A stretch of DNA of 64,000 nt, from NCBI GenBank assembly GCA_048941285.1, contig JBHLNS010000009.1, positions 1-64,000 on the forward strand, given 5' to 3'. Below, one piece after another: positions 2,948 to 47,824 of this stretch. The DNA comes from Promethearchaeota archaeon (GTDB lineage: Archaea; Asgardarchaeota; Lokiarchaeia; Sigyniarchaeales; SOKP01). Below the pieces are notes generated by a model. That model was not told the origin of the DNA, did not search any database, and was given only the letters and a program-made list of their open reading frames with translations. Position 1 is the first letter of the stretch, and every line of letters begins with the position of its first letter. The translations under genes and the position numbers were made by a program.

Positions 2948-3666
2948 TCAAAAAATTCAGTGATTTTTTTTGAATATATTTCTTCATTTACTATTTTTTT
3001 CGTTGTATCCCACGATTTTCTTGCGATTTTAGGTATTTTTTTATTCTCTTTCACATAATTTCTGAGAAATTGGGTTGTTATAATATCAGAAGGGTATCCT
3101 GAACCAAAATTTCCATATTTCATATGCAATTCTTTTATTAGAGTATCTCTTTTATCTTTAGCAATTATAGACCCTGCCGAAACAATTGGATAGAGATCAT
3201 CAGCTTTATGTTTAGAAATTATTTTTTTGGGAGTATAATTCAATAATTGTTTTATAGATTTTCCGAATCTCTGCTCATTTACATCTGCAGCATCTATATA
3301 GATTATATCTGGCTGCAAATCGTTAATAATTTCTGCCATTTTTAACTCTTCAAGTCGATTCAATGTAAGTTTTTTACTTTCTCTTGCATCAATTTCTTGA
3401 GGACTAATTACAACTATTTTGTGTGAATGACACTTACTCTGCAAGAGATTATTTAACTCACTTCTACTTTTGGGAGATAATTTTTTTGAATCTTTAACCC
3501 CAATTTCAGATAATAAGTTTATTTTTGATTTTTTGAAACAAACTCCACATATAACCATAGGACCTAAGACAGAGCCTTTTAACATATAATTCGAAGAGAA
3601 TTAAATTCTACCAGCCTCGTCGATCCCACAGATTAATTCGATTTTATCCTCACGATTCTTGTACAA
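2944..3666 (-). CDS. rnhB: Ribonuclease HII, split by a predicted 30-nt BHB intron (exon 1 3666-3608, exon 2 3577-2944; about 230 aa spliced)
   Basis: The track ORF (start 3585) lacks the N-terminal catalytic motif. In-frame upstream sequence encodes ELICGIDEAGR, separated from GSVLGPMV by 30 nt containing TAA. KADDLYPIVSAGSIIAK and GSGYPSD occur downstream. The start at TTG 3666 is inferred. Confidence 0.9.
3578..3607 (-). other. Predicted BHB (tRNA-type) intron in rnhB mRNA: AATTTAATTCTCTTCGAATTATATGTTAAA
   Basis: Central helix UGGU/GUUA, 3-nt bulges AG|A and AA|A, inner stem AUUUAAUUC/GAAUUAUAU, exon-exon stem GACGAGGC/GGCUCUGUC. Removal restores DEAGRGSVLG and deletes the in-frame TAA at 3601-3603. 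Confidence 0.82.
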
Positions 3667-4651
3667 GTTCAATGAATTCTTCTTCATCATCGACTTCTTC
3701 TAAATTTTTAATTTTAACAATAGGGATATTTGTATTTTTTAACTGTTCAGGAATTTTGATATCATTATCAATTATGAAAAGTGAATTTTTATGAAATAGA
3801 TCTGTGAATAACTTTAGACATTGGAAATTCATTTCATTTATTTTTCCTTGTTCTTCAGAGATCCCAGAAAATAGAGGATAAAAGCTATCTTTACTTATCT
3901 TAGGTGAATGAGAGTATAAAGATAATTTGAAAGGAATAGATCCTTTTTTATACCAATAAGAAGAAAGACCAATATCCATTATTATATCTTGAACATGTGA
4001 TTCAAATTTGCTTAATTCTTTTTCTTCTGAAACTCCTTTTTCATCTAAATCATCTTTTATTGTCCATTCAAAAAGATTTATTTTCTTAAAGAGATCATTA
4101 TTTTCTAATATCTCTGATATTTGTTCAGCAATTTTCTCTGACGGTCGCATAGATTCATTTTCATATGAACATATAGTTCTCTTTGTAACTCCTAAGATTT
4201 CTGATAATTCTTTTCGTGATATTAAATTTTTTTCTCTTAAGATTTTCATTAATTTACCATCTAAAAATACTATTGCTCCACCTCTTCTCGCTAATATATG
4301 TGGATAATGGCCATTAAGTATATTTTCTAATGTATTAAGTGTTATAAAGGGTAAACCCTCTCTTACATAAATAGTATTGTCTTCTAGTTTCTGGTACCGA
4401 TTTCTGATTCCAATTAGTAAAGGCTTTGATTTAAGGATTAAGGATAATGATTTTATGTCATGAATAACACTTTCATTTAGGTTATCTATATTAGGAAATA
4501 TTTTAACACTGAATACCAAATCTTCTTTCTTAACTAAAAGATCAAAACAGAATTTATTTTTATTAATAGCAAAATTTCCCAATGCTAATGTTTCATAATT
4601 AGCCTTCTTTAATAATACATCAATCCTTTGAATTATCTTTTCAATCGTCAA
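3650..4651 (-). CDS. Archaeal HTH transcriptional regulator (COG1395-like)
   Basis: FDLLVKK N-terminal domain, ARRGG and XRE-type HTH SRKELSEILGVTKRTICSYEN. Confidence 0.85.
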   Translation of the reverse strand: MTIEKIIQRIDVLLKKANYETLALGNFAINKNKFCFDLLVKKEDLVFSVKIFPNIDNLNESVIHDIKSLSLILKSKPLLIGIRNRYQKLEDNTIYVREGLPFITLNTLENILNGHYPHILARRGGAIVFLDGKLMKILREKNLISRKELSEILGVTKRTICSYENESMRPSEKIAEQISEILENNDLFKKINLFEWTIKDDLDEKGVSEEKELSKFESHVQDIIMDIGLSSYWYKKGSIPFKLSLYSHSPKISKDSFYPLFSGISEEQGKINEMNFQCLKLFTDLFHKNSLFIIDNDIKIPEQLKNTNIPIVKIKNLEEVDDEEEFIELVQES

Positions 4652-4765
4652 ATCTAATCTTTAAAAAACTATATAGCATAAAAAAATTATTCTTTTTTGA
4701 ATAAGGAATATAATCTTATAAATATATAGCTTTTACATTGGTAATGACAAACTTTCTATGCTTTC

Positions 4766-5353
4766 TTATTTTTTATTAGATATGCGTAGAAGATCTGAAT
4801 CCGTGATAATTCCAGTATATTCATTGTTTTCTTTCACTAAAACAGCTGGATATTTCATAAGTAGATCAGAAATATCCTTCACATTCCAATTTTTATCAAT
4901 TTCTGGAAAAGGGAGTTCTTTTATTAGCGACACATCCATATTGATAATCGTTGGATTATCTGTGATATATTTTTGTATTTTTTTTGAGGTAATACTACCA
5001 AAATTTTGATTATTTTCTATTATTGGTAATTGTGAAATTCCATTTTCATTCATTAAATTAACTGCCTCTCTTATTGTAGATCTAGGATTTATGAATTTGA
5101 TATTAGTAGTCATTAATTCTCCTGCAATCCGGACTGATTCTTCCTTTTTCTTACGTTTATTAATTAAATATTCAAAAATCCTCTTAAATTTGGTGTATGG
5201 AGGATCAACAGTTCCTCTCTCTATTCTAGAAATTGTGGATTGAGGAATATTTAATTTTTCGACCCTAGCAAGTTCGTTTGCTAATTGTTTTTGGCTAATG
5301 TCTAACTTTTTACGTAATCGTTTGATTTCACTTAAATCTGGTAATTTATCCAT
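4766..5353 (-). CDS. XRE-HTH plus CBS-pair transcriptional regulator (COG3620-like)
   Basis: IKRLRKKLDISQKQLA...QSTISRIERGTVDP; CBS motifs ISQLPII and GIITDSDLL. Confidence 0.88.
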   Translation of the reverse strand: MDKLPDLSEIKRLRKKLDISQKQLANELARVEKLNIPQSTISRIERGTVDPPYTKFKRIFEYLINKRKKKEESVRIAGELMTTNIKFINPRSTIREAVNLMNENGISQLPIIENNQNFGSITSKKIQKYITDNPTIINMDVSLIKELPFPEIDKNWNVKDISDLLMKYPAVLVKENNEYTGIITDSDLLRISNKK

Positions 5354-5535
5354 TTTTGCTATGAATAGATTTTATGCTTCTTATGCATAATATAATTACA
5401 AAATATTTATAAAAGTTATTAATTAAAAATTCTGATGATACGATGTATTGCATTTTTGATTTAATAAGGAATTTAACTGATAATTAATTTAAAAACATAT
5501 TTAGTAGAACTATTTATAGAAGATGAGTAATTGAA

Positions 5536-6780
5536 ATGTTGAAAATTTCAAAGGCACATTTTTTACCAATTGAAAAAAGTGATTTTCCCGAACTCTGTGA
5601 AAGGAAAGGAATTGGACATCCTGATACTGTGTGCGATGCTGTTGCTGATGCATGCTCTAGAGCCTTATGTCTTTACTATCTCGAGAATTTCAATCGAATA
5701 TACCACCATAATGTAGACAAAGCAGCATTAGTAGGTGGAACAGCAAAACCAAAATATGGTGGTGGTCAAATTATCCAACCACAATATTTTTTGATTGTTG
5801 GAAGAGCAATAAATCAAATTCTTACAGAATGTGGTGATGGTTCAAATAAACTTGAATATGTTCCTATTCCAACAATTTGTATTGAAACCCAACGTGAAGT
5901 ACTCTCAAATATTTTTAGAAACCTTGATTTAAATCGAGATATCCAATTTGATTATGCAGTTCGACCAGGATCGATTGATCTAACGGGAGTTTTTGATGAA
6001 TCCCATCATACTGAAGAAGTTCCACTCGCTAATGATACTAGTTTTGGAGTAGGGTATGCTCCTTATTCGGATGTTGAAAAGATAGCTTTAGAAGCAGAAT
6101 ATTTAATCAATTCAGATAAATTCAAAGACAAATGTAAGGCTTCTGGGGAAGATGTTAAAGTAATGGTTGAGAGAATTGGAAATGAAGTGGGAATAACTGT
6201 TGCAGCCGCAATGGTAAGCAAATATATAAATGATGCGAGTGAATATGTTAGCTATGTTGATCAAATCAAGGAAGCTGTTTTAGATTTAGCCGCAGATATA
6301 ATTCCAGACCGAGAAGTATCATGTCAAGTCAATGTAGCAGATAAGATCGAAAAAGGAATTATGTACTTAACTATTACTGGAACATCTGCCGAAGCGGGTG
6401 ATGATGGAGAAGTAGGACGTGGAAATCGATCTAACGGTCTTATAACACCTTGCAGAACAATGAGTTTAGAAGCTGTTTGTGGAAAAAATCCTATTAATCA
6501 TGTAGGTAAATTATATAATGTACTTGGAACAGAAATGGCTAGAGAAATAATAAAGAGAGGTCAAGGAGATATTATAGAAGCACATGTCAAATTATTATCT
6601 CAAATTGGTAGACCTATCACCGACCCCTGGGTTAATTCAATCGAATTGATTCCTGCTGATAATGTAAACTTCGATTCAGTTAAAAAAATAGCTCAGGAAG
6701 TTACAGCTGAAAAACTTAGTAAGGAATACTTCATTGATTTACGAAAAAGATTAATTGCTGGTAAAGTCCAAGTTTTTTGA
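5536..6780 (+). CDS. mat: Archaeal-type S-adenosylmethionine synthetase
   Basis: [68 protein letters not shown]. Confidence 0.96.
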
Positions 6781-6800
6781 TAAATTCTTATAGATAAACA

Positions 6801-6829
6801 AATTTTTATTTTTTTCTCTTTTTTCTTTT
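6801..6829 (+). terminator. Oligo-T tract after mat (archaeal-type terminator)
   Basis: Several T runs about 20-50 nt after the stop codon. Confidence 0.45.
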
Positions 6830-6915
6830 ATTAGGTAATTTATAGCACAATTTTATAATTTTATACAATCCAATTATTTTTTTATTAAAACAATGATATC
6901 TAAAAGTGAGGCTGA

Positions 6916-7182
6916 ATGGGTTTAGATAAGTGGCTAAAGTCAGATGATAAAAAAAATGATCTAAAAAATATGAAAATTCCCACAAAACAAGTTGAAAAGA
7001 GGAAAAAAGAACAAAAAAAAAACAAAACTGTTGAACAACAAATAAGAAAATTGATAAAGTATACGCTTCTTTGTGGAAACACTATATGTAAGTATCAAAG
7101 AATTATAGTTAAAAAGCAACTGAGTGAAAAGGATAGAATCTGCCCTAGATGTGGAAAAAATATGAGAGTTAAGGAAGAATAA
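6916..7182 (+). CDS. Small basic Zn-ribbon protein
   Basis: MGLDKWL start, Lys-rich linker, CGNTIC and CPRCG; SD-like GTGAGG upstream. Confidence 0.6.
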   Translation: MGLDKWLKSDDKKNDLKNMKIPTKQVEKRKKEQKKNKTVEQQIRKLIKYTLLCGNTICKYQRIIVKKQLSEKDRICPRCGKNMRVKEE

Positions 7183-7435
7183 ATTTACTAGGTAAACCAA
7201 AATCTTTAGTATTATTCAAAAAATTAGATGGAAGATTATCTAAATCAAAAACAGATTCACAATTTGGGCAAGTGTTAGGTTTTTTACTGTATTTTAATAT
7301 TAAGTAAACAATAAAACCCAAACCTAAAGTTAGAATGACCATAAAACAGAGGACTTCATGATAAACATGGTTAAAATTCTTACGTCTAAGGGATACCACC
7401 CTTTCACATGTTGGACAGTATACTTTATGACCCAC
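7169..7435 (-). CDS. LITAF-like Zn-ribbon membrane-associated protein
   Basis: CPTC, then a hydrophobic stretch (VLCFMVILTLGLGFIVYLIL), then CPNC. Confidence 0.65.
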   Translation of the reverse strand: MGHKVYCPTCERVVSLRRKNFNHVYHEVLCFMVILTLGLGFIVYLILKYSKKPNTCPNCESVFDLDNLPSNFLNNTKDFGLPSKFILP

Positions 7436-7579
7436 TGGTTAACTTCTCTCTTTTTAATAATTAAATTAAATATATTAAATTATAATTAATTTTTGGTTAT
7501 TATAAAAATACAATTTTTTTTTTATTACATTGTTTTATCAATAGGTCTAATATAAACCGAGCTTGAAAAATAAAAGGTA

Positions 7580-7744
7580 TTAATTAAAACCTCTAAAAAC
7601 TTTTTTTTCCTCTTGCTTCTTTTTCTTTTCTCCAGTTGTTAAAATATCCCAAGTGCTACTAACACCCATATCTTTTAATTTCTTTCGCTCCTCATCTAAA
7701 GACATATCATTTTTATTCTCATCTTCAAATTCATCTTCACTCAT
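7580..7744 (-). CDS. Small charged protein, 54 aa (MSEDEFEDENKNDMSLDEERKKLKDMGVSSTWDILTTGEKKKKQEEKKVFRGFN); not in ORF track
   Basis: ATG-to-TAA ORF with host-like purine-rich codons, filling an intergenic gap. Confidence 0.6.
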   Translation of the reverse strand: MSEDEFEDENKNDMSLDEERKKLKDMGVSSTWDILTTGEKKKKQEEKKVFRGFN

Positions 7745-7946
7745 CAAACAAACCAATAAAATCTTTATCCTTAATAAACTAGTGTGATTAGCCTTAATAT
7801 ATTTTTCTTAATTTAAGATTAATAAGCGTTATGTAAATGTTATAGCATTATTAGGAAAAATTTAATGATGACATACTCAATAAAATTTTAAGTATCTAAT
7901 TTTATATTTTATTAAAAATCATTTTAAAAAATTTTTTATACTAAAT

Positions 7947-8951: not shown

Positions 8952-9139
8952 TATTATTTATTTCCTTATTTTTCTCTAATTTTGAAATAATTATTTTTTT
9001 AAGACTATACATGCATTATGACAAAAATAAAAAGAAAAAATTATGAAGGATGATTATTTTAAATTATTTGAATTTTGAGTATTATTTATAATATTATTTG
9101 AGCAAAAAAACAATATAATTGATCTTAAAGTGATTTAAA

Positions 9140-10084: not shown

Positions 10085-10178
10085 TTTCATGAAAGAAAAG
10101 TTGTTTGAATTCATAAAAATTATCAAGGAAAAAGTCTTTATTTTCATATCCTATTGAATATATAAAATTATTTGAATA

Positions 10179-10841: not shown

Positions 10842-10899
10842 GTAAAATAAGAATAAAAGCAAAAGAATATAATATTATTATTAACTAAAAAAGTTCTGA

Positions 10900-19166: not shown

Positions 19167-19168
19167 TT

Positions 19169-20269
19169 TTAATCATCACCACTCATTATTAATAGTCGTT
19201 CATAATCTAAATTTAATAATTTTAATTCTTTTTCTGCTATGTTTGTAATCTTATCATTAATTAGAACCAATTTTTTTCTGAGTTCAATTAAAATATTTTG
19301 TATATTCTCTAGGATCCCTTCTTCATTAAAAGAGATTTTTTCAATGAATTTTAAATAACTATTTTTTCTTTCCTTCCCAGAATAAAGCTTTTTCAAATCC
19401 ATCAATCCTATATTGATTTCTTCAAGCTGGTTCCTATATTTTAATAATGATAATAATTGAGAATTCCAATCTTTAAAGATATCAACATCTTTATTAATCT
19501 TTTCATATTTAAATTTATCAGAAAGTTCTACTTTCTCATCTTTAAGATATTGAATTATTTCTTTATTTTCTTCTATTGCTTTGTTGATTTTTTTTACAAT
19601 TAATTTTGTATTTAATACTGGATCAAAAATTTTAATGAATTCATTAATTTTTTCCTGTATTTCTCTAAACCTTTGAATAAATCCCTCAATTGTAAATTCA
19701 ATTTTAATCGCTTGGTAAATATTCCCAAATTGATCCAAAATATAATAAAGATCATCCGATAATGTATAATCATGTTCGCCAATACCAAAAATAAGGCTAT
19801 GAATTACATTGCTTTTTTCACATCGTACACCCTTTAGCCTGGTTAGTGCTAAATTAAAATTCCTACGATTTAGAAATTTAAATTTTTTATTAATTATTAA
19901 AAATAATGTATCTTCAGGAACAGAGATAGTAACATTTTCTATAGTTATTGTTTCTTCTCCTAACTTTAAAATAAAATCATCTTCTTTTTGCTCAAATTCT
20001 CGCAAACTTCGAATATTCTTAATTAATCCTAAATCAATATAGATTTCGATAAATTCCTTGTTCCAAAATTTTAAAATGTTACTCTTATAAATATCATCTA
20101 AAATAAGTACTCTTTCATAGGATTCAATAAGAATATTATCGCTTAAGTCTTTAAATAAATCATTTCTAATAACATATAAGAAAAGAATGATATATCTCAT
20201 GTCTAAGTTATCGAGAACGCTATCTATTAAGGTTTGATCATGTTCTAAGGTTAAATTTCTATGTTCCAT
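19169..20269 (-). CDS. Hypothetical protein with possible N-terminal winged helix and C-terminal coiled coil
   Basis: First gene of the operon; ATG 20269 preferred over the track start 20344; C-terminal heptads. Confidence 0.75.
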   Translation of the reverse strand: MEHRNLTLEHDQTLIDSVLDNLDMRYIILFLYVIRNDLFKDLSDNILIESYERVLILDDIYKSNILKFWNKEFIEIYIDLGLIKNIRSLREFEQKEDDFILKLGEETITIENVTISVPEDTLFLIINKKFKFLNRRNFNLALTRLKGVRCEKSNVIHSLIFGIGEHDYTLSDDLYYILDQFGNIYQAIKIEFTIEGFIQRFREIQEKINEFIKIFDPVLNTKLIVKKINKAIEENKEIIQYLKDEKVELSDKFKYEKINKDVDIFKDWNSQLLSLLKYRNQLEEINIGLMDLKKLYSGKERKNSYLKFIEKISFNEEGILENIQNILIELRKKLVLINDKITNIAEKELKLLNLDYERLLIMSGDD

Positions 20270-21246: not shown

Positions 21247-21693
21247 TTACGTCTGTTTACGTTTTGCAAAGAGCTGCTTTAATTCCCCCATAATTGCTCC
21301 TCTAAGTGATACTGGACTAGCAGGACGGCCAGGGGTGGGAACAGGACCTGAACCTCCAGGGGGACCTCCAGGTGGGCCTCCTGGTGGTGGTGGTGGAGGA
21401 CCTCCAGGTGGACCTCCAGATGCACGCGCTGTAACAGGAGTTACCGCAGTTGGTGTTGTTACGGGAGCGCCTCCCGATCTGAGTGATGAAATTTGATTAT
21501 TTAAAGAATTAATTTGGTTTTGTAAATTTGAAACTTTCTCATTTACAGAGCCTAAGGATTGATCGACCAAATCAGGGATGCGTAAGACAATAGACATTAT
21601 CTTTTCAATAATATCGCCAAAAGCATTTAACTTTTCTTCTAATGGCGCTTTTCGAGTACTATCTAAGAAGCTTGCAAATTCTTCAGCACACAT
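21247..21693 (-). CDS. Coiled-coil plus polyproline plus basic C-terminal helix protein (Ena/VASP-like architecture)
   Basis: VSNLQNQINSLNNQISSL, GGPPGGPPPPPPGGPPGGPP, C-terminal GAIMGELKQLFAKRKQT. Confidence 0.8.
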   Translation of the reverse strand: MCAEEFASFLDSTRKAPLEEKLNAFGDIIEKIMSIVLRIPDLVDQSLGSVNEKVSNLQNQINSLNNQISSLRSGGAPVTTPTAVTPVTARASGGPPGGPPPPPPGGPPGGPPGGSGPVPTPGRPASPVSLRGAIMGELKQLFAKRKQT

Positions 21694-32292: not shown

Positions 32293-33765
32293 ATGAATGT
32301 TAATAAAATTGATGACAATATCTACGAGATTCCTCCAAAAACATTAATGACAAGGATTAAAGGAAATATTGAAAAGTTTCAAATGAAGGTTCCCGTCAAA
32401 ATTTATGCTAATGATTATATTTTAGAAAAAATCCGGATAGATCGTACATTGGACCAGATATGTAACGTTGCTTGCTTATCTGGGATACAAAAACATGCTA
32501 TCGCTTTATCAGATGCTCATCAAGGGTATGGTTTTTGTATTGGGGGTGTTGCTGGAACAGATGCAGAGGATGGAATGATTTCTCCCGGTGGTGTAGGCTA
32601 TGATATTAATTGTGGTGTAAGACTGTTAAGATCAAACTTGTCTCTTAATGATATTAACAGTGTTCTTCCTAATCTGTTGGATAAAATCTTTGATAATATT
32701 CCTTCAGGTTTAGGTTCAAAAGGTAAACTTAATATAAACTATTCAGAGTTAGATAAAGTGCTAAATAATGGGGTGAGATGGGCAGTAGACAATGATTATG
32801 GTATTGAAGAGGATCTTAAACATTTGGAAGAAAATGGATGTTTAAAGGATGCGGATGCTAGTCTAGTTTCTCAAAAGGCAAAACAACGCGCAATAAAGCA
32901 ACTAGGTTCTTTAGGAAGTGGAAATCATTTTCTAGAAATACAAAAAGTCGATGAAATTTATAATGAAGGAGTTGCCAAAACTCTCGGAATACATGAAAAG
33001 AATCAAATTACTGTTATGGTTCATACAGGAAGTAGAGCGCTGGGACATCAAGTATGCACAGATTCTTTACGCAACATTGAACAAGCCATGAAAAAATATA
33101 ATGTAAAAGTTCCTGATAGAGAACTAGCATGTGTTCCTGCCAATACTTCTGAAGCACAAAACTATTTAAAACAAATGGCATGTGCAGCTAATTTTGGATT
33201 CACAAACCGTCAATTAATCACGCATTGGTTAAGGGAATCCTTTCAAAACATCTTTAGGAAGGATATAGATGATTTAGATCTACATCTAATTTATGGAGTT
33301 TGCCATAATATTTTAAAAATAGAAGAACATGAAATCAATGGTAAAAGGATGAAATTAAACGTTCATAGAAAAGGTGCTACAAGGGCCTTTCCACCAAATC
33401 ATCCTGCTTTACCGTCTAGATATAAATCTATAGGACAGCCAGTTTTAATACCCGGAACGATGGGTTCTGCATCATATCTCTGTGTTGGTAAAGAAAAAGC
33501 AATGGATCTGTCTTTTGGCTCTACAGCTCATGGTTCTGGAAGATTAATGTCGAGATCTAAAGCAACGAAAAAATATTGGGGTGAGCGAGTTAAAGAGAGT
33601 CTAAGCCAACAAGGCATCCTAGTGAGAGCTGCTTCTATGAAGGTGATCGCTGAAGAGGCCCCTGGTGCATATAAAGACATAGATCAAGTTGTTCAAGTGA
33701 GCCATGATCTTGAAATCGTTGAAAAAGTAGTTAGGCTAGTTCCTATAGGGGTTGTAAAGGGATAA
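32293..33765 (+). CDS. rtcB: RtcB RNA-splicing ligase
   Basis: DAHQGYGFCIG, GVGYDINCGVR, GSGNHFLE, HTGSR, HRKGATRA, IPGTMG, HGSGR, EEAPGAYKD. Confidence 0.97.
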   Translation: MNVNKIDDNIYEIPPKTLMTRIKGNIEKFQMKVPVKIYANDYILEKIRIDRTLDQICNVACLSGIQKHAIALSDAHQGYGFCIGGVAGTDAEDGMISPGGVGYDINCGVRLLRSNLSLNDINSVLPNLLDKIFDNIPSGLGSKGKLNINYSELDKVLNNGVRWAVDNDYGIEEDLKHLEENGCLKDADASLVSQKAKQRAIKQLGSLGSGNHFLEIQKVDEIYNEGVAKTLGIHEKNQITVMVHTGSRALGHQVCTDSLRNIEQAMKKYNVKVPDRELACVPANTSEAQNYLKQMACAANFGFTNRQLITHWLRESFQNIFRKDIDDLDLHLIYGVCHNILKIEEHEINGKRMKLNVHRKGATRAFPPNHPALPSRYKSIGQPVLIPGTMGSASYLCVGKEKAMDLSFGSTAHGSGRLMSRSKATKKYWGERVKESLSQQGILVRAASMKVIAEEAPGAYKDIDQVVQVSHDLEIVEKVVRLVPIGVVKG

Positions 33766-33789
33766 TTTCTTCTAAATATTAGTCTTACT

Positions 33790-34227
33790 TTATATATCAA
33801 ATACAATATTTATCTTAACACTTTTCTTTTTTTCTTCAAGCTTCATAAAAGAATATGTTATAGCTTTAACTTCAGTTCCGAGTTCATGTTTGAGCTTATC
33901 AAACTTGAGTCCTTTAGCAACAGCTTTTAGGAAATATTGCTTTTTGTCTTTTTTTATTGGATGAATTTTTACATCATTAAAAATTAACTGCTCTACATCA
34001 AAAATATAGAGAAATTCAGTTAAAAAGTCAAATAATAACGCTTCTTTATCTTCGGCTTTAATTGTTATGATTCTTTCAATTTCAGGTGATATTGATCTAA
34101 AACTCGGAGTAATTGTTTCCATTAAGCTATAAACGGTTTGTTCAAAAGCATCTTCCAAGGATTTACCTTTAGCTTCAACCGAAACATCAGCAGTATGATC
34201 TAGGAATTTATAGCCTCTTTTTGTCAT
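33790..34227 (-). CDS. Archease (RtcB cofactor)
   Basis: FLDHTADV and EVKAITY; ends VFDI; convergent with rtcB. Confidence 0.95.
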   Translation of the reverse strand: MTKRGYKFLDHTADVSVEAKGKSLEDAFEQTVYSLMETITPSFRSISPEIERIITIKAEDKEALLFDFLTEFLYIFDVEQLIFNDVKIHPIKKDKKQYFLKAVAKGLKFDKLKHELGTEVKAITYSFMKLEEKKKSVKINIVFDI

Positions 34228-40017: not shown

Positions 40018-43000
40018 ATGGTAGATATAAGTAAAACAATGGAATTGTACTTTAATACAATTCAAAAACAAGTTGATAAATGCTATTCAATTGCAGAGCA
40101 CGCCCGCGAAAAAGGACTTGATCCTGAATTAGAAGTAGAGTCTCCTCAGGCAAAAGATTTAGCCGGTAGAGTTGAAAAGCTTGTTGGTCCAAAAGGTGTT
40201 GCAAACATAATAAGAACATTAAAAAAGAAAGGTTTAACAGAAGATGAACTTGTCTTCAAGGTTGTTGCTGATATTTTGGATAATAAAATTGGAAATATTG
40301 AATCTTTAGAAGCCCGAGTTGATAGAGCAATAAGAATTGGATTAGCGATAAAAACTATGGGCGTAGTAAGCGCACCGCTTGAAGGAATCTCTAAGATTTC
40401 AATTAGAAATAACGGATATGGGAGTAATTATTTATCCTTATATTTTGCAGGACCAATTAGAGCTGCAGGAGGAACTACCGCAGCTTTGTGTGTATTAATT
40501 GCAGATTATGTAAGAAGAAAGTCTAAAATTCCTAAATATGAGGCTACTGAAGCAGAAATTGGTAGATATGTAGAAGAAGTAAAACTATATGATCGAAATG
40601 TCCATTTACAATATCCTTCATCAAATAAAGAAATCAGATATGCTGTGGGGCATTTACCAATAGAAATCAACGGAGACGCAACTGAAGATGAAGAAGTTTC
40701 TGCTTTTAGAGATTTACCTCGGATTGAAACAAATCACATAAGAGGTGGAGCATGCCTAGTTTTAAATGACGGTATTCTGCTCAAAGCCCCAAAATTACTT
40801 AAAATTGCCAATGCTATGAATCTGGAAGGCTGGAATTGGCTTGCTGAATTAAAAAAAATTGCTCAAAACCAAGAAAAGGTGGAAAAAAATAAAGAACAAG
40901 ATTTAAAAGAAGAAATTAAAATCCCTCCAAACTCTAAATATGTTGCAGATATTATTGCCGGACGCCCAGTTTTTAGTCACCCCTCTAAAATAGGAGGTCA
41001 TAGAATAAGATATGGAAGGTCTCGAAATACTGGTTTAGCTGCTGCAGGAATCCATCCTGCAACAATGGTTATTTTAGATGAATTTGTAGCAATTGGAACA
41101 CAATTAAGAATTGAACGACCTGGAAAAAGCACAAGTGTATGCCCCGTAGATAGTATTGAACCACCTATTGTTAAATTGAAGAGTGGTGATGTTCTGAAAA
41201 TATCAAATATCAACAAAGCAAAACAAATATTTCCAGAAATTAAAAAAGTATTATTTTTAGGAGATCTTCTATTTGGATATGGTGAATTTACAGAAAATAA
41301 TCACATATTAATACCCTCTGGATATGTAGAGGAATGGTGGGCATTAGAACTAGAAAAATCTATAAAAGATATAGAAATAATAGATAAAAGATCAAAAGCT
41401 TTTATTGAAAACCCATTTGAAAATATTCCTACTCCTGTAGAAGCTATTAAAATTTCAAGAGAATATAATATTCCTTTACATCCTTGTTATTTAGATTTTT
41501 GGGGTAATATAACATTAGAAGATTTGGAATTGCTGAGAAATGCACTTATCAAGAATTTTTCCAACTCTGAACAAAGAATTACGTTAAATTATGAAAAATC
41601 AATTAAAAAAATTCTAGAAAAGGCATTTATCCCTCACAAAATAAAGGATAATAAAATATTACTTAGTTTAAAAAGGAGTTTTATATTTAAAGAAATATTT
41701 AACTTAGAAGACAAAAAAACAATAGAAACAGAAAAAGATGATGATGTTTTTACTTATTTTTTTAAAGTCTCTTCAATTAAAGTCAAAAATAAAGCGCCAT
41801 ACTATATGGGATCACGTATGGGCAGACCAGAAAAGTCAGAAAGGAAAAGTATGAAAGGAATTCATGCATTATTTCCTCTGAGTGATATTGTTGGTAGTTC
41901 AAGATTATTTGAAAAAGCAATGGGATATAGTGCTAGAAAAAATGATAGTAATAATTCAATCTATAAAAAAAAGAAATCTTTCGATTTTGGAAATAAAAAT
42001 AATATTGTAGAAACCGGTAAAGTTAAAATAGAGGTCTGTAGGAAAAAATGCGTTAATTGTGGAACATCAAGTATTTTTAATATATGTCATAACTGTGGAG
42101 GTCATACTGAATTACAGAAAATATGTCCACGATGTAAAATACTTTTTCCCACTTTTGAAGAAAATTGTTCAAGATGTCATGAGCCATTGAAAACTTCAAT
42201 TGAAGCAAAATTTAATATAAGAAAGTATGTAAACTTAACTTTGAAATCACTTAATGTGCCTTTTCCCCCAAAATTTAAAGGTATTATTGGTTTAACGAAT
42301 GAATATAAAGTTCCAGAACCTATAGAGAAAGGAATTCTAAGAGCCAAAAATGATGTTTTAGTTTATAAGACTGCTGAAATAAGATATGACGCTACTGATA
42401 TACCATTAACCCATTTTAAACCATCAGAAATTGATACCTCCATAGAAAAATTAAGAGATATGGGATATGAATTGGATATTAAAGGAAATCCTCTAAATGA
42501 TAAAAATCAGATTTTAGAGTTGAAAGTACAAGATATAGTTCTTTCTGATGATTGTGCTAATTACTTTATTAAAGTTGCTAATTTCTTAGATGATGAATTA
42601 GAGCTATTTTATAAAGAAGATCGTTTCTATAATATTTCAGCTAGAGAAGATCTATTAGGACATTTAGCTGTAGGTTTAGCCCCACATACTAGTGCGGGAA
42701 TAATAGGTAGAATAATTGGATTTACCTCTGCGAGAGCAATATACGCTCATCCATATTGGCATGCCGCGAAAAGACGAAATTGTGATGGGGACGAAGATGG
42801 TGTTATGCTACTCTTAGATCCTCTATTGAATTTCTCAAGGCATTATCTTCCAAGCAAAATTGGTGGAAGAATGGATGCAACTTTAGTTATAGGTACTAAA
42901 ATAGATCCCAATGAAATTGATGTTGAATCCCACAATTTAGATACTTTAGATCGATATCCATTAGAGTTCTATGAAGCAACAGAACGATACGCTCTACCAT

Positions 43001-43539
43001 CTGAGATAGAAGCGCTAATGAGCCTGGTTAAAAGTTGTTTGGGAACATTTAGACAATATGAAAACATCGGATTCAATATCCCAACAAGCAATATTAATGA
43101 GGGCCCAATAACAACAGCCTATAAATTATATGAGACAATGGATGAAAAAATTGAAGCACAACTTAATTTGGCAAAACTTATTAAAGCTGTAGAAGCAAAA
43201 AAGGTAGCTGAAAAAATTTTAACTACCCATTTCAACCCAGATATACTAGGAAATTTGAGAAAATTTGCCATTCAGAGTTTTCGATGTGTTAAGTGTAATG
43301 AAAAATTCAGACGTCCGCCTTTATTGAACAGTGGAAAATGTCCTAAATGTGGAAATAGAATTATCCTGACAGTAAATCGTGGAGGTATTGAAAAATATAT
43401 ACCTCGTGCTTTGAAAATTTGTAACGATTTTAATTTGGACAATTACACCAAGCAAAGAATGGAATTAATTGAGGAGTATGTAGAAAGCCTAACAAATAAC
43501 CCAAAAATTAAACAGCATAAGTTATCTGACTTCTTTTAA
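40018..43539 (+). CDS. polD2: DNA polymerase D large subunit DP2
   Basis: GVVSAPLEG, YFAGPIRAAGGT, RYGRSRNTG, RMGRPEK, HAAKRRNCDGDED, GGRMDA; no intein. Confidence 0.97.
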   Translation: MVDISKTMELYFNTIQKQVDKCYSIAEHAREKGLDPELEVESPQAKDLAGRVEKLVGPKGVANIIRTLKKKGLTEDELVFKVVADILDNKIGNIESLEARVDRAIRIGLAIKTMGVVSAPLEGISKISIRNNGYGSNYLSLYFAGPIRAAGGTTAALCVLIADYVRRKSKIPKYEATEAEIGRYVEEVKLYDRNVHLQYPSSNKEIRYAVGHLPIEINGDATEDEEVSAFRDLPRIETNHIRGGACLVLNDGILLKAPKLLKIANAMNLEGWNWLAELKKIAQNQEKVEKNKEQDLKEEIKIPPNSKYVADIIAGRPVFSHPSKIGGHRIRYGRSRNTGLAAAGIHPATMVILDEFVAIGTQLRIERPGKSTSVCPVDSIEPPIVKLKSGDVLKISNINKAKQIFPEIKKVLFLGDLLFGYGEFTENNHILIPSGYVEEWWALELEKSIKDIEIIDKRSKAFIENPFENIPTPVEAIKISREYNIPLHPCYLDFWGNITLEDLELLRNALIKNFSNSEQRITLNYEKSIKKILEKAFIPHKIKDNKILLSLKRSFIFKEIFNLEDKKTIETEKDDDVFTYFFKVSSIKVKNKAPYYMGSRMGRPEKSERKSMKGIHALFPLSDIVGSSRLFEKAMGYSARKNDSNNSIYKKKKSFDFGNKNNIVETGKVKIEVCRKKCVNCGTSSIFNICHNCGGHTELQKICPRCKILFPTFEENCSRCHEPLKTSIEAKFNIRKYVNLTLKSLNVPFPPKFKGIIGLTNEYKVPEPIEKGILRAKNDVLVYKTAEIRYDATDIPLTHFKPSEIDTSIEKLRDMGYELDIKGNPLNDKNQILELKVQDIVLSDDCANYFIKVANFLDDELELFYKEDRFYNISAREDLLGHLAVGLAPHTSAGIIGRIIGFTSARAIYAHPYWHAAKRRNCDGDEDGVMLLLDPLLNFSRHYLPSKIGGRMDATLVIGTKIDPNEIDVESHNLDTLDRYPLEFYEATERYALPSEIEALMSLVKSCLGTFRQYENIGFNIPTSNINEGPITTAYKLYETMDEKIEAQLNLAKLIKAVEAKKVAEKILTTHFNPDILGNLRKFAIQSFRCVKCNEKFRRPPLLNSGKCPKCGNRIILTVNRGGIEKYIPRALKICNDFNLDNYTKQRMELIEEYVESLTNNPKIKQHKLSDFF

Positions 43540-44746
43540 CTCCCTCTTTTCTTATATCAATACTTCTTAAAGCTTGATGACAAATATTAATGCAACCGTT
43601 TAAGGCTTCCAAAGAACATTTATCAGGAGTATCTTTTATTGAATGGATATATTTCGAATCTGCACTTGAATGAAAACAGCTTACTTGAAATTTACTATTA
43701 GTTTTTTTAGCATATTTTTGAAATGATTTATAATCACTATTAGGTTTAATAGCTTTATTATAAATTTTTAATGGAATATTCAATTGATTTGCTGTTGCCC
43801 CAAATATATCATTTAGACTTTTATTCGTTTTTCTTCTAAAAATTATTCCAGATTTATTTAAAAGACCTATATAAGAACCTACCATATCGATATTAATATT
43901 AAATGAATTATCAAGATCATAAATTTTTTTCAGACTTTTGAAATGAGTTTTACAAAACCTTCTTGAGCCCTTTAGCCCCCATTCTTCAGCTCCAGGCCAT
44001 AAAATCAAAACATCCATATTATTGAGCGGATTTTTTTTTAAAATCTTTGCTAATTCAAGTGAAATAGCTATTCCACTCGCATTATCAACTGATCCTGATG
44101 ATGGGCGTTCTCTAAAAACTAAATATAAGATTGGGATTGATAAAAACACTCCTCCAATTGATGAGAAACTTATAAAGATTATTAAAAGATTAGACAGAGA
44201 GAGACGAATTAATGCGAAAAAATCAAAAAGAAAGATAGCTATAAAGACTACAAAAACTATAATATAAAAAACTACAATTAATCTATAAATGAAAAAAATA
44301 ATTACTTGCAACCTATATGGAATATTTGCAGAAATTGAATCATAATGGGCAGATATAATTACTAATGGTCTTTCTGGTGTTTTTTCTTTAGCTTTAATTA
44401 ATGCGAAGATGTTTTTGGATTCTTCACTCTTTATGAAACTAACTTCGCGAAAATTAGCAAACGAATATTTTAAAATAAAATAAGCGACAACAATTAAAAT
44501 CATGCGAAAAAGTATTAGATTGATTATTATAAGAAGATAACTTGTTCTCATAAGTATTTTTAAAGGACCTGTCCAATCAAAATGTTCGACTTCGGGAGTA
44601 ATATTATTTTCTATTAATTCTTTCTCTATATAGTTTAATGCTTCAGTTTCTCCAACAGATGAAGCTGTACGATTAAAGGCTAAAGATTTTATGTGTTCCA
44701 TAGCATTTGGCTCATCATACAATTGTAAATTTGAAATAGGCATCAC
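43508..44746 (-). CDS. Membrane-embedded M28-family metallopeptidase
   Basis: SAHYDS, GSVDNASG, GAEEWGLKGS, NIDMVG, SDY, IHSIKD; inserted TM helices. Confidence 0.88.
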   Translation of the reverse strand: MMPISNLQLYDEPNAMEHIKSLAFNRTASSVGETEALNYIEKELIENNITPEVEHFDWTGPLKILMRTSYLLIIINLILFRMILIVVAYFILKYSFANFREVSFIKSEESKNIFALIKAKEKTPERPLVIISAHYDSISANIPYRLQVIIFFIYRLIVVFYIIVFVVFIAIFLFDFFALIRLSLSNLLIIFISFSSIGGVFLSIPILYLVFRERPSSGSVDNASGIAISLELAKILKKNPLNNMDVLILWPGAEEWGLKGSRRFCKTHFKSLKKIYDLDNSFNINIDMVGSYIGLLNKSGIIFRRKTNKSLNDIFGATANQLNIPLKIYNKAIKPNSDYKSFQKYAKKTNSKFQVSCFHSSADSKYIHSIKDTPDKCSLEALNGCINICHQALRSIDIRKEGVKRSQITYAV

Positions 44747-44975
44747 TTATTTAATTTATTATGTGTTCTTATAATTCAATAATAAATAGAATTATAACAA
44801 ATATAAATGCTCATATTATAGAATTTGAACTAATCAAAATATTAAGTTAGGTAATCTATATCGAAAAAATTAAATGTTTTATATCTATAAATGTATTTTA
44901 TGATAATTAGGTTAGAATATGGCATTTTTATATTTCATCCACAATTTATTGAGATTTATTTGCCTAAAATTAGTG

Positions 44976-45148
44976 TGCAGGAGGTGGGATTCGAACCCAC
45001 GAATTTAGGTCGAGGAAGCAATTCCTTCGAAGACCTATGTCACTAGAGCCTCAGTTACGCCATAAACGTATTATTACGTAGTATTCTAGCGCCGTAGACC
45101 AGGCTTAGCCATAAACGTATTATTACGTTGTATTTTGGCAACTCCTGC
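44976..45148 (-). tRNA. tRNA-Leu(GAG) with three BHB introns (45105-45134, 45056-45085, 45004-45031)
   Basis: Removing 30+30+28 nt gives an 85-nt tRNA: acceptor GCAGGAG/CTCCTGC, anticodon arm CTAGA-CTGAGGC-TCTAG, variable arm GAC-ATAG-GTC, T-arm GTGGG-TTCGAAT-CCCAC. Confidence 0.9.
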
Positions 45149-45380
45149 ATTATGAAAAAAATTGTAATCCAATAATTTAGAGTTTATGAATTAAGATAAT
45201 GAATTTAATTTTTAAAATTTTTTTCCTTTAAGATTAATTTATTAAATTCGAACTTTAAATTTTAAGGCTTTCTAACGTTTTCGTTTTCTATAAATTTTTA
45301 TAACGAACGTATTATATACAATAATATATTTCAGTTATTTAGTAATACAGTTGCAACCAAAGTAAAAAGGATGTGAGCTA

Positions 45381-46394
45381 TTGTCGGTCGATCGAAAAAA
45401 ACTTGAAGCGCTACTTAAATGGTATAAGCAAGAGATTGGAGAAAACTTAATCGCGACTCTTATTGTGAATAGAGAAGGGTTGGTAATGTCTGCATTAAAA
45501 GGATCTTCTGATACGGAGGTAGAAGAAGATGTTATAGCAGGTGTAAGTGCACTTGTAGAACCTGTTCTGACTAGAATTACAGAAGAATTTAGTTCTGGTT
45601 CTTTTGGAACAGGAACTTTTGACACAGAAGAGCAAAGGTTTATTTTTTGTGAAGCTGGCCCCGAAGCAATTTTTGTGACTGTATTGAAAGCTGTTGCTAT
45701 GGTAGATCCTGTATTTCCCTATGCGTATTTAGCTGCTGAGAAGATTGCGAGAATATTTGATGGGAGATCAGTAAGTCCGGTAATTCCTAAATTGATCACA
45801 GAGAAAGAATCACAAAATATTCAAAGAAAAATAGACAGCCTACAAAAAATTAAGATCAAATCTGGAGAATATGCGTTTAAGCTTATACTTGGCGGAGAGG
45901 GTGGAGTTGGAAAGACTAGTATGGTTCATCGATTCGTAGAAGATTCATTTCAGGTTGACTATAAATCTACAATTGGCACGTCAATAATGAAAAAGGAATG
46001 TGATTTTCAAGGATTAGAGTCAAAAGTTCGTTTTGTAATCTGGGATTTAGCTGGACAAGCACAATTTAAACGAGTGAGACAGACGTATGTTGCAAATGCT
46101 GAAGCAGGTATTTTAGTCTATGACGTTACTCGTAAAGATACTTTGGATAGTTTAGAAAATTGGTTTAATGAGATTAAAAGTGTTTCACCAACAATATCAA
46201 TGATTCTCGTTGGAAATAAGATAGACCTTGAGAATGATCGTGTTATATCCTCTGAACAAGGCGAAAGGATCGCAGAAAAATTAAATCTTTCATATATTGA
46301 AACATCGGCTAAAACTGGTGAAAATATTAATGATGCTTTTAAAATGCTTGCATTACAAATGATTAAACGTTATGTATTTACAGAAGAAGTATGA
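45381..46394 (+). CDS. Roadblock/LC7 domain fused to a Rab-like small GTPase
   Basis: N-terminal LIVNREGLVMSAL roadblock pattern; G1 GEGGVGKT, G2 YKSTIG, G3 WDLAGQ, G4 NKID, G5 ETSAK; no C-terminal Cys. Confidence 0.9.
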   Translation: MSVDRKKLEALLKWYKQEIGENLIATLIVNREGLVMSALKGSSDTEVEEDVIAGVSALVEPVLTRITEEFSSGSFGTGTFDTEEQRFIFCEAGPEAIFVTVLKAVAMVDPVFPYAYLAAEKIARIFDGRSVSPVIPKLITEKESQNIQRKIDSLQKIKIKSGEYAFKLILGGEGGVGKTSMVHRFVEDSFQVDYKSTIGTSIMKKECDFQGLESKVRFVIWDLAGQAQFKRVRQTYVANAEAGILVYDVTRKDTLDSLENWFNEIKSVSPTISMILVGNKIDLENDRVISSEQGERIAEKLNLSYIETSAKTGENINDAFKMLALQMIKRYVFTEEV

Positions 46395-46398
46395 GTAG

Positions 46399-46499
46399 AG
46401 CCTCTGGGGGGATTTGAACCCCCGACCTACGGATTACGAATCCTTAACATTTCATTCAACACGAAATAAAATGTTGCTCAACCGCTAAGCTACAGAGGC
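46399..46499 (-). tRNA. tRNA-Thr(CGT) with a 29-nt BHB intron at 28/29 (46444-46472)
   Basis: Acceptor GCCTCTG/CAGAGGC; spliced anticodon arm ACGGA-TTCGTAA-TCCGT; T-loop TTCAAAT; BHB central helix AGCA/UGUU. Confidence 0.9.
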
Positions 46500-46566
46500 A
46501 AAGGCAATGTAATAATACAAGTTTATTCAAAAATCATAATTGTAAAGAAATTTTAAAGTTTATTTT

Positions 46567-47592
46567 ATGAAAAATAATATTTACTTGGGAGATATTGGAG
46601 AAATTAAGTTAATTAAATTAGTCGAACAACAAATTTTAAAAAAGACTGGTAAAGAGTTAATAATTGATGATTCTTTTTTTTTTGATGTTAACGATAAGAA
46701 ACCAGGTATTAAAATAGTCCTAAATTCTGATATGTTAGTATCTACAACCGATGTACCTACTCTTATGAATTCTTATCAGATCGGTAGAAAATCTGTGATA
46801 ATGAATGTTAGTGATTTAATTGTTAAAGGTGTTAAACCAGAAGGCATAATCATTTCTTTTGGCTTACCAAAGGAACTTGAAAAAAAATCATTCATAGATA
46901 TCGTAAATGGAATCATAGATTGCGGTATAGAATTCGATCTGGATTATATAGGAGGAGATATTAATGAAACAAAAGAACTAATAATAAATCCTACTGTTTT
47001 CGGCTTTAAACACCCCTCAGAAATAATCTATAGAAAAGGTATTAAAGTAGGAGATATTTTGGTTGCTAATAACAAGTTTGGATTAACAGGTGTAGGATTT
47101 AATATTCTCCTAAAAAAGAAAGGAGGTCTCAATGATTTTCCTTATTATAAAAGAGCAATAATGAGTGTTCTAGAACCAGTAATCTCAGCTAGGGAAGCAT
47201 TTACGTTAGCACAAAAAGATTTAGCAACTTCTAGTATAGATTCTTCTGATGGGCTCTATAAATCTTTAAAAGATCTAATGATTTCTAATCCAAATCTTGG
47301 ATTTGAAGTTGAATTTAATGATAATTTAATTGATGAGGAAGCAATTAATTATTCAAAAGAATATAATGTTTCTTTGGAAGAATTAGTTTTAAATGGGGGG
47401 GAAGAATTTATACATTTATTTACAATAAATCCTGAAGATTTCAAACAGGCCCAAAAAGAAATCCGATCGGCGAGAGGAAATATTTTTAAAATCGGAAAAG
47501 TTATTTCAGAGGATTATATTTCTATTTCTAAGGAGGGAGAAAAAAAAGAGATAAGTAATTATGGATTTGAACATTTCATTAAAAGGGTTTAA
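46567..47592 (+). CDS. thiL: Thiamine-monophosphate kinase
   Basis: GEIKLI, IDDS, SDML, GRKSVIMNVSDL, IGGD, SIDSSDGL, GGEEF. Confidence 0.9.
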   Translation: MKNNIYLGDIGEIKLIKLVEQQILKKTGKELIIDDSFFFDVNDKKPGIKIVLNSDMLVSTTDVPTLMNSYQIGRKSVIMNVSDLIVKGVKPEGIIISFGLPKELEKKSFIDIVNGIIDCGIEFDLDYIGGDINETKELIINPTVFGFKHPSEIIYRKGIKVGDILVANNKFGLTGVGFNILLKKKGGLNDFPYYKRAIMSVLEPVISAREAFTLAQKDLATSSIDSSDGLYKSLKDLMISNPNLGFEVEFNDNLIDEEAINYSKEYNVSLEELVLNGGEEFIHLFTINPEDFKQAQKEIRSARGNIFKIGKVISEDYISISKEGEKKEISNYGFEHFIKRV

Positions 47593-47717
47593 ATAGTGAC
47601 AGAATTAATGAAAATAATTTACATTTGGACGAAAGGAACTGATTTAGATAAAATTTTTATATTATTATAGATTTATACTCATACTATTTAAGCTTAAACA
47701 TTTAAAAAATTCTTGAT

Positions 47718-47824
47718 GGGCTATTGGCGCAGGCAGGTAGCGCAGCAGGCTTTTAACCTGACATTTATGGGAAGATCTCCCATAAAAAGAAAGGTCGGGG
47801 GTTCAATTCCCCTATAGCCCGCCA
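47718..47824 (+). tRNA. tRNA-Lys(TTT) with a 30-nt intron at about 44/45 (47763-47792) and encoded CCA
   Basis: Acceptor GGGCTAT/ATAGCCC then GCCA; anticodon CAGG-CTTTTAA-CCTG; intron hairpin TTTATGGGA/TCCCATAAA; T-loop TTCAATT. Confidence 0.88.

Follow-up and report, generated by a model that had tools for sequence, protein, structure and literature searches.

How can the gene rnhB yield a full-length ribonuclease HII (RNase HII) when a 30-nucleotide (nt) insert holding a stop codon interrupts its reading frame? This question is raised by a stretch of DNA from a Loki-type Asgard archaeon (G000:C69:1-64000; the whole 64,000-nt stretch is hereafter the window), which belongs to a 3.55-Mb metagenome-assembled genome of 101 contigs (G000) with a G+C content of 29% overall and 25-32% across the window. 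We compared this genome with that of a congener, G022, genome-wide, and other G numbers denote related genomes. The evidence below indicates that the rnhB insert is most probably a genuine archaeal bulge-helix-bulge (BHB) intron in pre-mRNA, spliced by the tRNA-splicing enzymes. The archaeon very probably carries tRNA-type introns of about 30 nt both in tRNA genes and in the coding sequences of rnhB, an EF-2 family gene and rpoA1, whose mRNAs would need the tRNA-splicing enzymes.

Window features are given on the strand on which they are read, which is minus for rnhB, tRNA-Leu, tRNA-Thr and archease and plus for tRNA-Lys and rtcB. The interrupted gene has three parts:

3608..3690, minus strand: rnhB exon 1, from translation; encodes ...ELICGIDEAGR, including the Asp-Glu of the DEAGRG motif
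3578..3607 (equally 3577-3606), minus strand: putative rnhB BHB intron, 30 nt, from frame reading, structure alignment, conservation and covariation
2944..3577, minus strand: rnhB exon 2, GSVLGPMV... to the stop, from structure alignment and Pfam

The minus-strand frame reads ...ICGIDEAGR, passes through the insert as I, stop (an in-frame TAA), F S S N Y M L K, and resumes with GSVLGPMV..., where exon 2 opens with GSVLGPMVICGV. When read through, the protein matches the RNase HII of T. kodakarensis (2dfh, E = 1.2e-48), whose chain shows a gap of 10 residues in the alignment, and the gap in solved RNase HII chains falls exactly at the insert. A full-length match to the Pfam family RNase_HII (PF01351), including the N-terminal DEAGRG, was reached only once the insert was removed. 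We take the Asp-Glu pair of this motif to be the first two catalytic residues of RNase HII, and rnhB is a single-copy gene in G000 (one match). The choice of start codon is uncertain among ATG at 3690, a conserved TTG at 3672 and a TTG at 3666; the TTGAAC start region is kept in 20 of 20 loci. The candidate starts (3650-3690) overlap by 17-41 nt the 3' end of an upstream gene on the minus strand (3650-4651), which encodes a 333-amino-acid (aa) HTH_3 protein and has its stop codon at 3650-3652.

The insert is not confined to this genome. The gene is interrupted in all 23 same-genus genomes in which it was found (G016 gave no match), with in-frame stops over a full-length match in 21 and a split across frames in 2, and it is stop-free in all 15 matching genomes from other genera of the order. 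Both exons are open and conserved in the 23 congeners, at 62-83% protein identity. We examined the site in 51 loci, 50 with the motif, which gave 45 distinct sequences. The insert is present in 31 of these, at 30 nt in 29 and at 29 nt, with the frame broken, in 2. The remaining 14 are insert-free and contiguous, reading AGA^GG (carets mark junctions), which is exactly the predicted join. Within the insert, one fixed codon holds the stop, which is TAA, TGA or TAG depending on the species.

Pairing across the insert follows the architecture of a tRNA-type intron. We describe this layout as 1+9+5+9+4+2, that is, 1 nt, a 9-nt stem strand, a 5-nt loop, a 9-nt stem strand, 4 exon-pairing nt and 2 nt. 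The rnhB intron reads A + AUUUAAUUC (stem) + UCUUC (loop) + GAAUUAUAU (stem) + GUUA + AA, and its GUUA pairs with exon UGGU. In this strict register, 3578-3607 is cut as AG^A...AA^A, and a 4-base-pair (bp) helix UGGU/GUUA lies between the bulges AG^A and AA^A (3+3 nt). Over the 31 insert-bearing sequences, 91.0% of 525 cells are paired under the strict model, compared with 23-46% when the partners are slid, and 5 pairs changed on both sides, while shuffles gave 1.5 (none of 500 reached 5). The central helix, H, is paired in 95% of cells, and its pair 17-44 is seen as U-G, C-G, U-A and G-C. The 9-bp hairpin, h', is paired in 89.5% of cells and has four pairs with double changes, and the outer exon-exon helix is 90-97% paired. 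An alternative register, which has a 3-bp central helix, 3+4-nt bulges (the 3' bulge being 4 nt) and an outer helix of 8 bp, is paired in 93.5% of 618 cells. In either register the cuts would lie within bulges and give an identical mRNA. Taken together, these patterns support the interpretation of the rnhB insert as a conserved BHB-type intron.

We found two further coding sequences in G000 that appear to be interrupted in the same manner:

G000:C1:142544-144826: EF-2 family gene; best solved match P. horikoshii EF-2, E = 3.6e-154
G000:C1:142733-142762 (locus L175:1233-1262): candidate EF-2 intron, 30 nt, with a TAA stop
G000:C1:98368-98397 (locus L210:568-597): candidate rpoA1 intron, 30 nt, with TAG and TAA stops, between GHFGH and IELARPV

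The EF-2 intron reads U + UAGAUUAAG + GCUUA + CUUGAUCUA + CUGA + AA with exon UCAG, and the rpoA1 intron reads U + GUUAGAAAC + AAUUA + GAUUCUAAC + GCCU + AA with exon GGGC, which gives a central helix GGGC/GCCU; the layout is common to the EF-2, rpoA1, rnhB and tRNA-Lys introns. P. horikoshii EF-2 lacks the 10 residues that the EF-2 insert would encode. Among the 25 genomes of the genus (G000 counted), this insert is present in 8, absent from 15 and not judgeable in 2, and it is absent from all 16 genomes of other genera. The 15 intron-less alleles read exactly TCAGAT^GA. The central helix UCAG/CUGA is paired in 100% of seven sequences. By eye, CAGCTCC around the insert occurs in 7 of 7 intron-bearing alleles versus 1 of 15 intron-less ones, and GAGGAG in 6 of 7 versus 1 of 15, which indicates that the synonymous sites that pair around the insert vary with its presence; the helix that they form is 97% paired. 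A second 30-nt insert of identical layout lies inside the AH^IDHGKT GTPase motif of the EF-2 family gene, in G017 (L182) only among the genomes searched.

Like rnhB, rpoA1 is single-copy in G000. The G022 gene is insert-free, reads CAT^ATT and shows 98.3% identity over 60 aa across the join, and the site lacks an insert in 21 of the 24 congeners searched (G022 and 20 others; G011 gave no match). By eye, rpoA1 of G024 (L237) has a 30-nt insert at the G000 site and a 35-nt one after a 6-nt micro-exon, ATAGAA, and that of G021 (L239) has about 85 extra bases at the same spot, which looks like an insertion hotspot. A preliminary description of the window had proposed that such introns spread to new sites, coding sequence included, with the lack of any further coding-region BHB intron as the outcome that would speak against it. 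That outcome did not occur, because the EF-2 and rpoA1 introns exist in G000.

RNA evidence is available at the EF-2 site. In one study, four sediment metatranscriptome runs contain 7-11% of the EF-2 words; the material consists of contigs, for which the bridging rule of the search tool is 31 letters. The EF-2 intron is covered by none of the 26 RNA pieces, and no joint is listed under this rule. Two contigs from run X4 read exon to exon, one from exon 1 into 11 letters of exon 2 and the other from exon 2 back into 22 letters of exon 1. Because these extents fall below the bridging rule, we treat them as weak support, a hint and not proof. By eye, the letters of the X4 contigs fit solely the intron-bearing G001 allele among the 22 EF-2 alleles compared.

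Genes for the enzymes that such splicing would use are present in the genome, two of them in the window:

32293..33765, plus strand: rtcB, RNA 3'-phosphate ligase, the presumed exon ligase; Pfam RtcB, E = 2.9e-170
33790..34227, minus strand: archease, RtcB cofactor; Pfam Archease, E = 4.5e-41

These matches bear out the earlier assignment of rtcB and archease to 32293-34227, and the caution that their proximity might be coincidental was apt: the G022 genome has rtcB at 1.20 Mb, far from both rnhB (2.145 Mb) and the tRNA cluster (0.70 Mb), so that the proximity of rtcB and archease to rnhB and the tRNA genes is not conserved. As had also been noted, the window has no endA; two EndA paralogues, of 198 aa (contig C70, 1939-2535) and 201 aa (contig C68, 23978-24583), are encoded elsewhere in G000, each with both Pfam EndA domains. 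Against 3p1z_B, the catalytic subunit of the A. pernix heterotetramer, the 198-aa paralogue gives an alignment (E = 9e-35) that is unbroken across the K44 loop, and it keeps the Y/H/K positions; in this alignment, IHKPRLEYFSKP stands gap-free against VEKPRGADFEGP of 3p1z_B, whose Lys is chain residue 44 by count. In an alignment with 5x89, the 201-aa paralogue has Ser where the catalytic His lies. Judged by these alignments, the EndA of G000 is of the two-paralogue type with a specificity-loop lysine, having one predicted catalytic and one predicted His-less subunit, which agrees with the relaxed-specificity EndA that the preliminary description had postulated. According to the available text of PMC5829648, a two-subunit EndA with the L1, or Crenarchaea-specific, loop and the conserved lysine (K44 of A. 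pernix) occurs in Asgard archaea, and this loop is tied to relaxed specificity.

From the insert and its conservation, pairing and junctions, together with the enzyme genes and the pattern of presence and absence, we infer cleavage, ligation and the enzymes that act. In the proposed mechanism, exon UGGU/GGU and the outer helix GAGGCU...GGCUC of the rnhB transcript would find their partners in the 3' portion of the insert and in exon 2. This fold would place both exon-intron junctions in short bulges that flank a 3-4-bp helix, beside the hairpin of 9 bp and a 5-nt loop. A two-subunit EndA, composed of the catalytic paralogue with the specificity-loop lysine and the His-less one, would cut both bulges, and RtcB with archease would join the exons to give ...GIDEAGR-GSVLGP.... 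The spliced mRNA would be the only one to yield an RNase HII that has its first two catalytic residues. The same enzymes would also remove the introns of about 30 nt from tRNA-Leu, tRNA-Thr, tRNA-Lys, the EF-2 family gene and rpoA1.

Several observations weigh against this mechanism. The two rnhB registers fit about equally well, the central helix of rnhB consists of G-U pairs in most species, and RNAalifold on rnhB returns the hairpin and the outer helix with the central helix unpaired, which is no clean textbook motif. For EF-2, with seven sequences, covariation is not significant (one double change; 62 of 500 shuffles as high). The RNA contigs concern EF-2 alone, not rnhB, and they come from a related strain and could stem from an intron-less EF-2 allele. 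The assembly of EndA as a hetero-tetramer and its broad specificity are predictions from sequence alone.

The tRNA genes of the window provide a setting in which introns of this layout recur. ARAGORN at default settings called no tRNA gene in the window. Rfam found tRNA-Thr and tRNA-Lys at 47-51 bits, each about 30 nt over length, and missed tRNA-Leu at threshold, giving a weak 22.2-bit match on its 3' part only; we recognised tRNA-Leu(GAG) from a G+C island and direct reading. Inserts were placed by brute-force cloverleaf fit and by reading of folds:

44976..45148, minus strand: tRNA-Leu(GAG) gene, 173 nt, three inserts, from the G+C island and reading
45105..45134, minus strand: putative tRNA-Leu intron 1 (Leu-1), D-arm, 30 nt (28 if cut two bases inward), from cloverleaf reading
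45056..45085, minus strand: putative tRNA-Leu intron 2 (Leu-2), at 30/31 or 31/32 (anticodon stem/loop boundary), 30 nt, strict BHB by eye
within 45006..45036, minus strand: third tRNA-Leu insert, variable arm, 24-30 nt, boundaries not fixed, from reading and length
46399..46499, minus strand: tRNA-Thr(CGU) gene, from Rfam and cloverleaf fit
46444..46472, minus strand: putative tRNA-Thr intron, 29 nt, between 28/29, strict BHB
47718..47821, plus strand: tRNA-Lys(UUU) gene, from Rfam and cloverleaf fit
47763..47792, plus strand: putative tRNA-Lys intron, 30 nt, variable loop (44/45 or 43/44), from cloverleaf reading

In tRNA-Thr, strict BHB cuts restore the cloverleaf exactly; the H helix is AGCA/UGUU, the bulges are AC^A and AA^G, the hairpin is 8 bp, and H and h' are each paired at 4 of 4 positions. 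Leu-2 has the H helix CGCU/GGCG and bulges AGA and UAA, and in G022 its hairpin has another sequence with the pairing kept. The Leu-1 exon join, GCCAA^GCCTGG, corresponds to the uninterrupted D-arm of a tRNA-Leu fragment in G022. That fragment (G022:C1:701060-701200), which contains intron 2, lies about 450 nt from a full tRNA-Leu gene. A tRNA-Leu is expected to measure about 85 nt; removal of 60 nt from 173 leaves 113 nt, hence the third insert. The tRNA-Lys intron reads A + UUUAUGGGA + AGAUC + UCCCAUAAA + AAGA + AA and forms no H helix with the adjacent exon, that is, it has a relaxed motif; its stem shows a compensatory U-A to A-U change in G022. Over the whole genome, 9 of 24 Rfam tRNA matches above the cut-off are 101-105 nt long, which suggests that inserts of about 30 nt are the norm in G000. 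ARAGORN run with -i called the two single-intron tRNA genes with wrong introns, one of them as Phe.

These placements largely agree with the preliminary description, which had counted six short introns and found none of the five in tRNA genes at the canonical 37/38 site. By cloverleaf reading, none of the inserts in tRNA-Leu, tRNA-Thr and tRNA-Lys is at 37/38. The lengths hold for rnhB (30 nt), Thr (29), Lys (30), Leu-1 (30, or 28) and Leu-2 (30); for the third Leu insert, our range of 24-30 nt neither confirms nor refutes the 28 nt given before. Two sequence resemblances had also been pointed out. The pattern AAT...TAT-N4-(A/T)A is literally present in rnhB, Leu-1 and Leu-2, and it reflects the layout of the BHB architecture and not kinship. 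The ATGTTAA common to the ends of the rnhB and Thr introns is likewise present; it is shifted by one base relative to the cut sites, and it is not kept in G022, in which the Thr intron ends GATGCTAA and the rnhB intron ends TATGTCAAAA. By sequence comparison, the rnhB and tRNA introns are alike in layout only. A speculation that the rnhB target couples removal of RNA:DNA hybrids to splicing capacity found no evidence.

The alternative that survives best concerns the history of these inserts only and leaves their splicing untouched. It holds that they form one mobile family, that is, uniform 30-nt BHB mini-introns that move between RNA or DNA sites, in tRNA genes and coding sequence, for instance by reverse splicing or copying, as opposed to old introns inherited vertically and occasionally lost; we give this somewhat less than an even chance. 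When each window intron was compared with the whole genome by BLAST, Leu-1 and Leu-2 matched at 26 of 27 bases (E = 8e-7), and this pair, which lies in a single gene, is the one case of nearly the same intron at two sites; the rnhB, Thr and Lys introns gave no copies. Intron 1 of tRNA-Leu in G022 differs from Leu-1, which indicates that the copy is recent and lineage-specific. Copying at least once is supported by this pair, and of the proposed spread of introns this much stands; a sequence kinship of the rnhB intron with tRNA introns does not, since nothing better than E = 0.048 was found for it. That best other match lies in an AT-rich intergenic spacer (G000:C99:16805-16827), where an AT-rich hairpin agrees with the initial 22 nt of the rnhB intron in 22 of 23 columns with one gap, probably by chance.

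The coding introns speak on both sides of this question. Separate trees of the two halves of EF-2 (3' and 5'), built without the truncated loci L198 and L199, require at least six gains or losses of the insert and show no clustering of it (as low in 243 of 500 shuffles). The rpoA1 inserts of G000, G024 and G021 differ, lie within 6 nt of one another and are lacking in most congeners, G017 has the second EF-2 intron, and the layout 1+9+5+9+4+2 is common to all. These features favour mobility. Against it, introns at different sites show no sequence similarity except for the Leu-1/Leu-2 pair (the rpoA1 and EF-2 introns were compared with the others by eye). Between copies of the EF-2 intron, up to 7 of the 30 bases differ, a divergence close to that of synonymous sites and consistent with old vertical descent in which precise loss recurred. 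For rnhB, the 14 intron-less sequences form one group nested among 36 intron-bearing rows in a tree of exon-2 RNase HII proteins, and intron presence takes 3 changes compared with 19.5 in shuffles. This nesting fits an old gain and later precise loss, and the history of the rnhB intron would fit one gain and one or two losses. Mobility of the introns is plausible. As a bolder and tentative proposal, which we would not yet back at even odds, Loki-type Asgard archaea may host active 30-nt BHB mini-introns that colonise any transcript site with a 4-nt exon complement, tRNA genes first and also essential protein genes such as rpoA1, the EF-2 family gene and rnhB, and that are repeatedly gained and lost between sister species, so that mRNA splicing by protein enzymes would be a routine and evolving element of gene expression in the nearest prokaryotic kin of eukaryotes.

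On splicing itself, a first rival holds that rnhB is broken, being either a pseudogene or a gene for a two-piece or N-terminally truncated RNase HII that starts at an ATG within the insert. In G000, the ATG at 3585 does open an ORF (open reading frame) of 213 aa (2944-3585, the expected output of a gene caller), which covers positions 8-199 of the 199 in Pfam RNase_HII and lacks positions 1-7. Yet a decayed gene sits poorly with two exons that stay open at the protein identities given above and with an insert whose length and pairing are kept. The would-be internal start (ATG, GTG or TTG), read by eye, is missing in 6 of the 31 insert-bearing sequences, and the truncated product of this sole rnhB copy would be without the presumably catalytic Asp-Glu. 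We consider this explanation very improbable.

Ribosome hopping is known from phage T4 gene 60. Translational bypassing, in which the insert would stay in the mRNA and the ribosome would take off before the stop and land past the hairpin, fits the position of the stop two codons after the end of exon 1 and next to a stable hairpin, the tolerance of 29-nt inserts and the GAT codons both before and first after the EF-2 insert in G000, but is the least credible of the alternatives given that rnhB offers no take-off codon matched by a landing codon so as to keep both R and G, that tRNA genes, on which ribosomes do not act, have inserts of the same 30-nt layout, that the exon bases pairing with the insert are constrained, with H pair types covarying in rnhB and the EF-2 TCAG present in 7 of 7 intron-bearing alleles and variable in intron-less ones, and that, as weak evidence, EF-2 RNA contigs lack the insert.

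Splicing of BHB introns from mRNA, the reading that we prefer, has a known counterpart. According to the available text of PMC2738675, the cbf5 pre-mRNA of Crenarchaeota (Desulfurococcales and Sulfolobales) carries a BHB intron, and the part of PMC7714728 available describes cbf5 as the only BHB intron reported in archaeal coding mRNA. The predicted introns of rnhB, EF-2 and rpoA1 are further cases beside cbf5. They resemble it in being tRNA-type introns in coding sequence that would depend on splicing endonuclease and ligase, in being gained or lost among relatives, and in having hosts with a two-subunit EndA. They differ in their hosts (rnhB, an EF-2 family gene and rpoA1), in their Asgard lineage (Promethearchaeota), in the length of exactly 30 nt and the single layout common to all three, and in that splicing here is a prediction from sequence comparison. 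The cbf5 homologue of G000 (TruB_N, 47940-48944, plus strand), right after tRNA-Lys, is uninterrupted.

Other systems share single aspects. The available text of PMC7714728 reports a BHB intron in the 5' untranslated region (UTR) of the Haloferax volcanii HVO_1309 mRNA, which is likewise an mRNA substrate of the archaeal splicing endonuclease; there the intron lies in a UTR, whereas here the reading frame depends on its removal. The available part of PMC11291895 gives introns in 92-95% of tRNA genes of Atabeyarchaeia and Freyarchaeia. Our genome likewise has numerous short introns outside the canonical position, which standard tRNA finders overlook. Reports attributed to Sugahara in 2008 and Fujishima in 2010 are said to describe multiple non-canonical tRNA introns in Thermoproteales and to propose intron transposition there. 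In common with that group, G000 has introns that lie outside 37/38, more than one of them in a single gene, and a near-identical pair at two sites (Leu-1/Leu-2); this pair lies within one gene, however, and no cross-gene families were seen. The available text of the Asgard tRNA-intron preprint finds the same contrast to Thermoproteales for Asgard archaea, and neither its main text nor that of PMC11291895, as available, mentions protein-coding introns. A further likeness is removal that alters what is translated. In the unconventional splicing of HAC1/XBP1 in eukaryotes, a protein endonuclease cuts a short coding-mRNA intron at stem-loops, and RtcB ligates the exons in animals. The endonuclease there, in contrast, is Ire1, and the splicing event is stress-regulated. 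The abstract of PMC12530127 mentions the XBP1 intron.

In the literature searched, which comprised few subscription journals and no supplements, rnhB, EF-2 and rpoA1 are not mentioned as BHB hosts, and archaeal coding-sequence splicing by the tRNA machinery is represented by cbf5 of Crenarchaeota alone, together with the one Haloferax 5'-UTR case. Here, three unrelated information-processing genes of one Asgard genome would need splicing, and rpoA1 and rnhB have one copy each. If this is confirmed, gene callers would truncate or split such genes in Asgard metagenome-assembled genomes, with rnhB lacking its catalytic N-terminus and rpoA1 and EF-2 falling into two pieces. Confirmation would also mean that the lineage closest to eukaryotes has mRNA introns whose removal depends on protein enzymes, a point of relevance to the origin of intron-tolerant gene expression. 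Presence and absence between sister species would then be a natural experiment on the arrival and loss of BHB introns, a matter that the Asgard tRNA-intron census left open.

The coding introns were sought by scans that covered introns of 18-48 nt, ORF-breaking inserts and genes present in G022; stop-free in-frame introns escape such a search. A strict BHB scan of G000 gave 170,112 matches, flat over lengths 17-80, and 8,294 of the strict matches fuse ORFs with no peak near 30 nt. The motif has no power alone because the genome is A+T-rich, and the strict scan missed rnhB because of one U-U mismatch. We therefore combined the motif with ORF restoration and with conservation or exact absence in the whole genome of G022. 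Requiring the BHB motif, ORF fusion and G022 conservation left 351 pairs, mostly off-frame junk because G000 and G022 are too alike. A filter on long spanning ORFs set at 70 drops rnhB, which has a 78-codon antisense frame; relaxing it left 34 pairs, among which rnhB was the one credible candidate. A relaxed BHB scan reduced 105 pairs to 29 loci, of which rnhB and EF-2 were judged real. The others, judged by eye from protein motifs, are probably gene boundaries (for example rrp4/rrp41, aroD/aroE, porA/porB and L29/next gene) or low-complexity frames. The presence/absence test gave three candidates in G000 and one in G022 whose site is unbroken in the other genome (at least 72% identity), with rpoA1 the one credible case. 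Internal stops are lacking in the G000 genes that match ADH_N (8 matches), Thiolase_N (9) and Thiolase_C (8), and the iolM-type and thiolase genes of G000 are uninterrupted.

Two further features of the window lie apart from these genes. On the minus strand, 19516-19573 gives a weak match resembling a C/D-box small RNA (Rfam sR52, 29.8 bits versus a gathering score of 50, E = 0.033). A G+C island at 21263-21501, which reaches up to 70% in this 29% genome, lies inside a minus-strand ORF (21247-21693, 148 aa), in which it encodes a Pro/Gly-rich low-complexity stretch.

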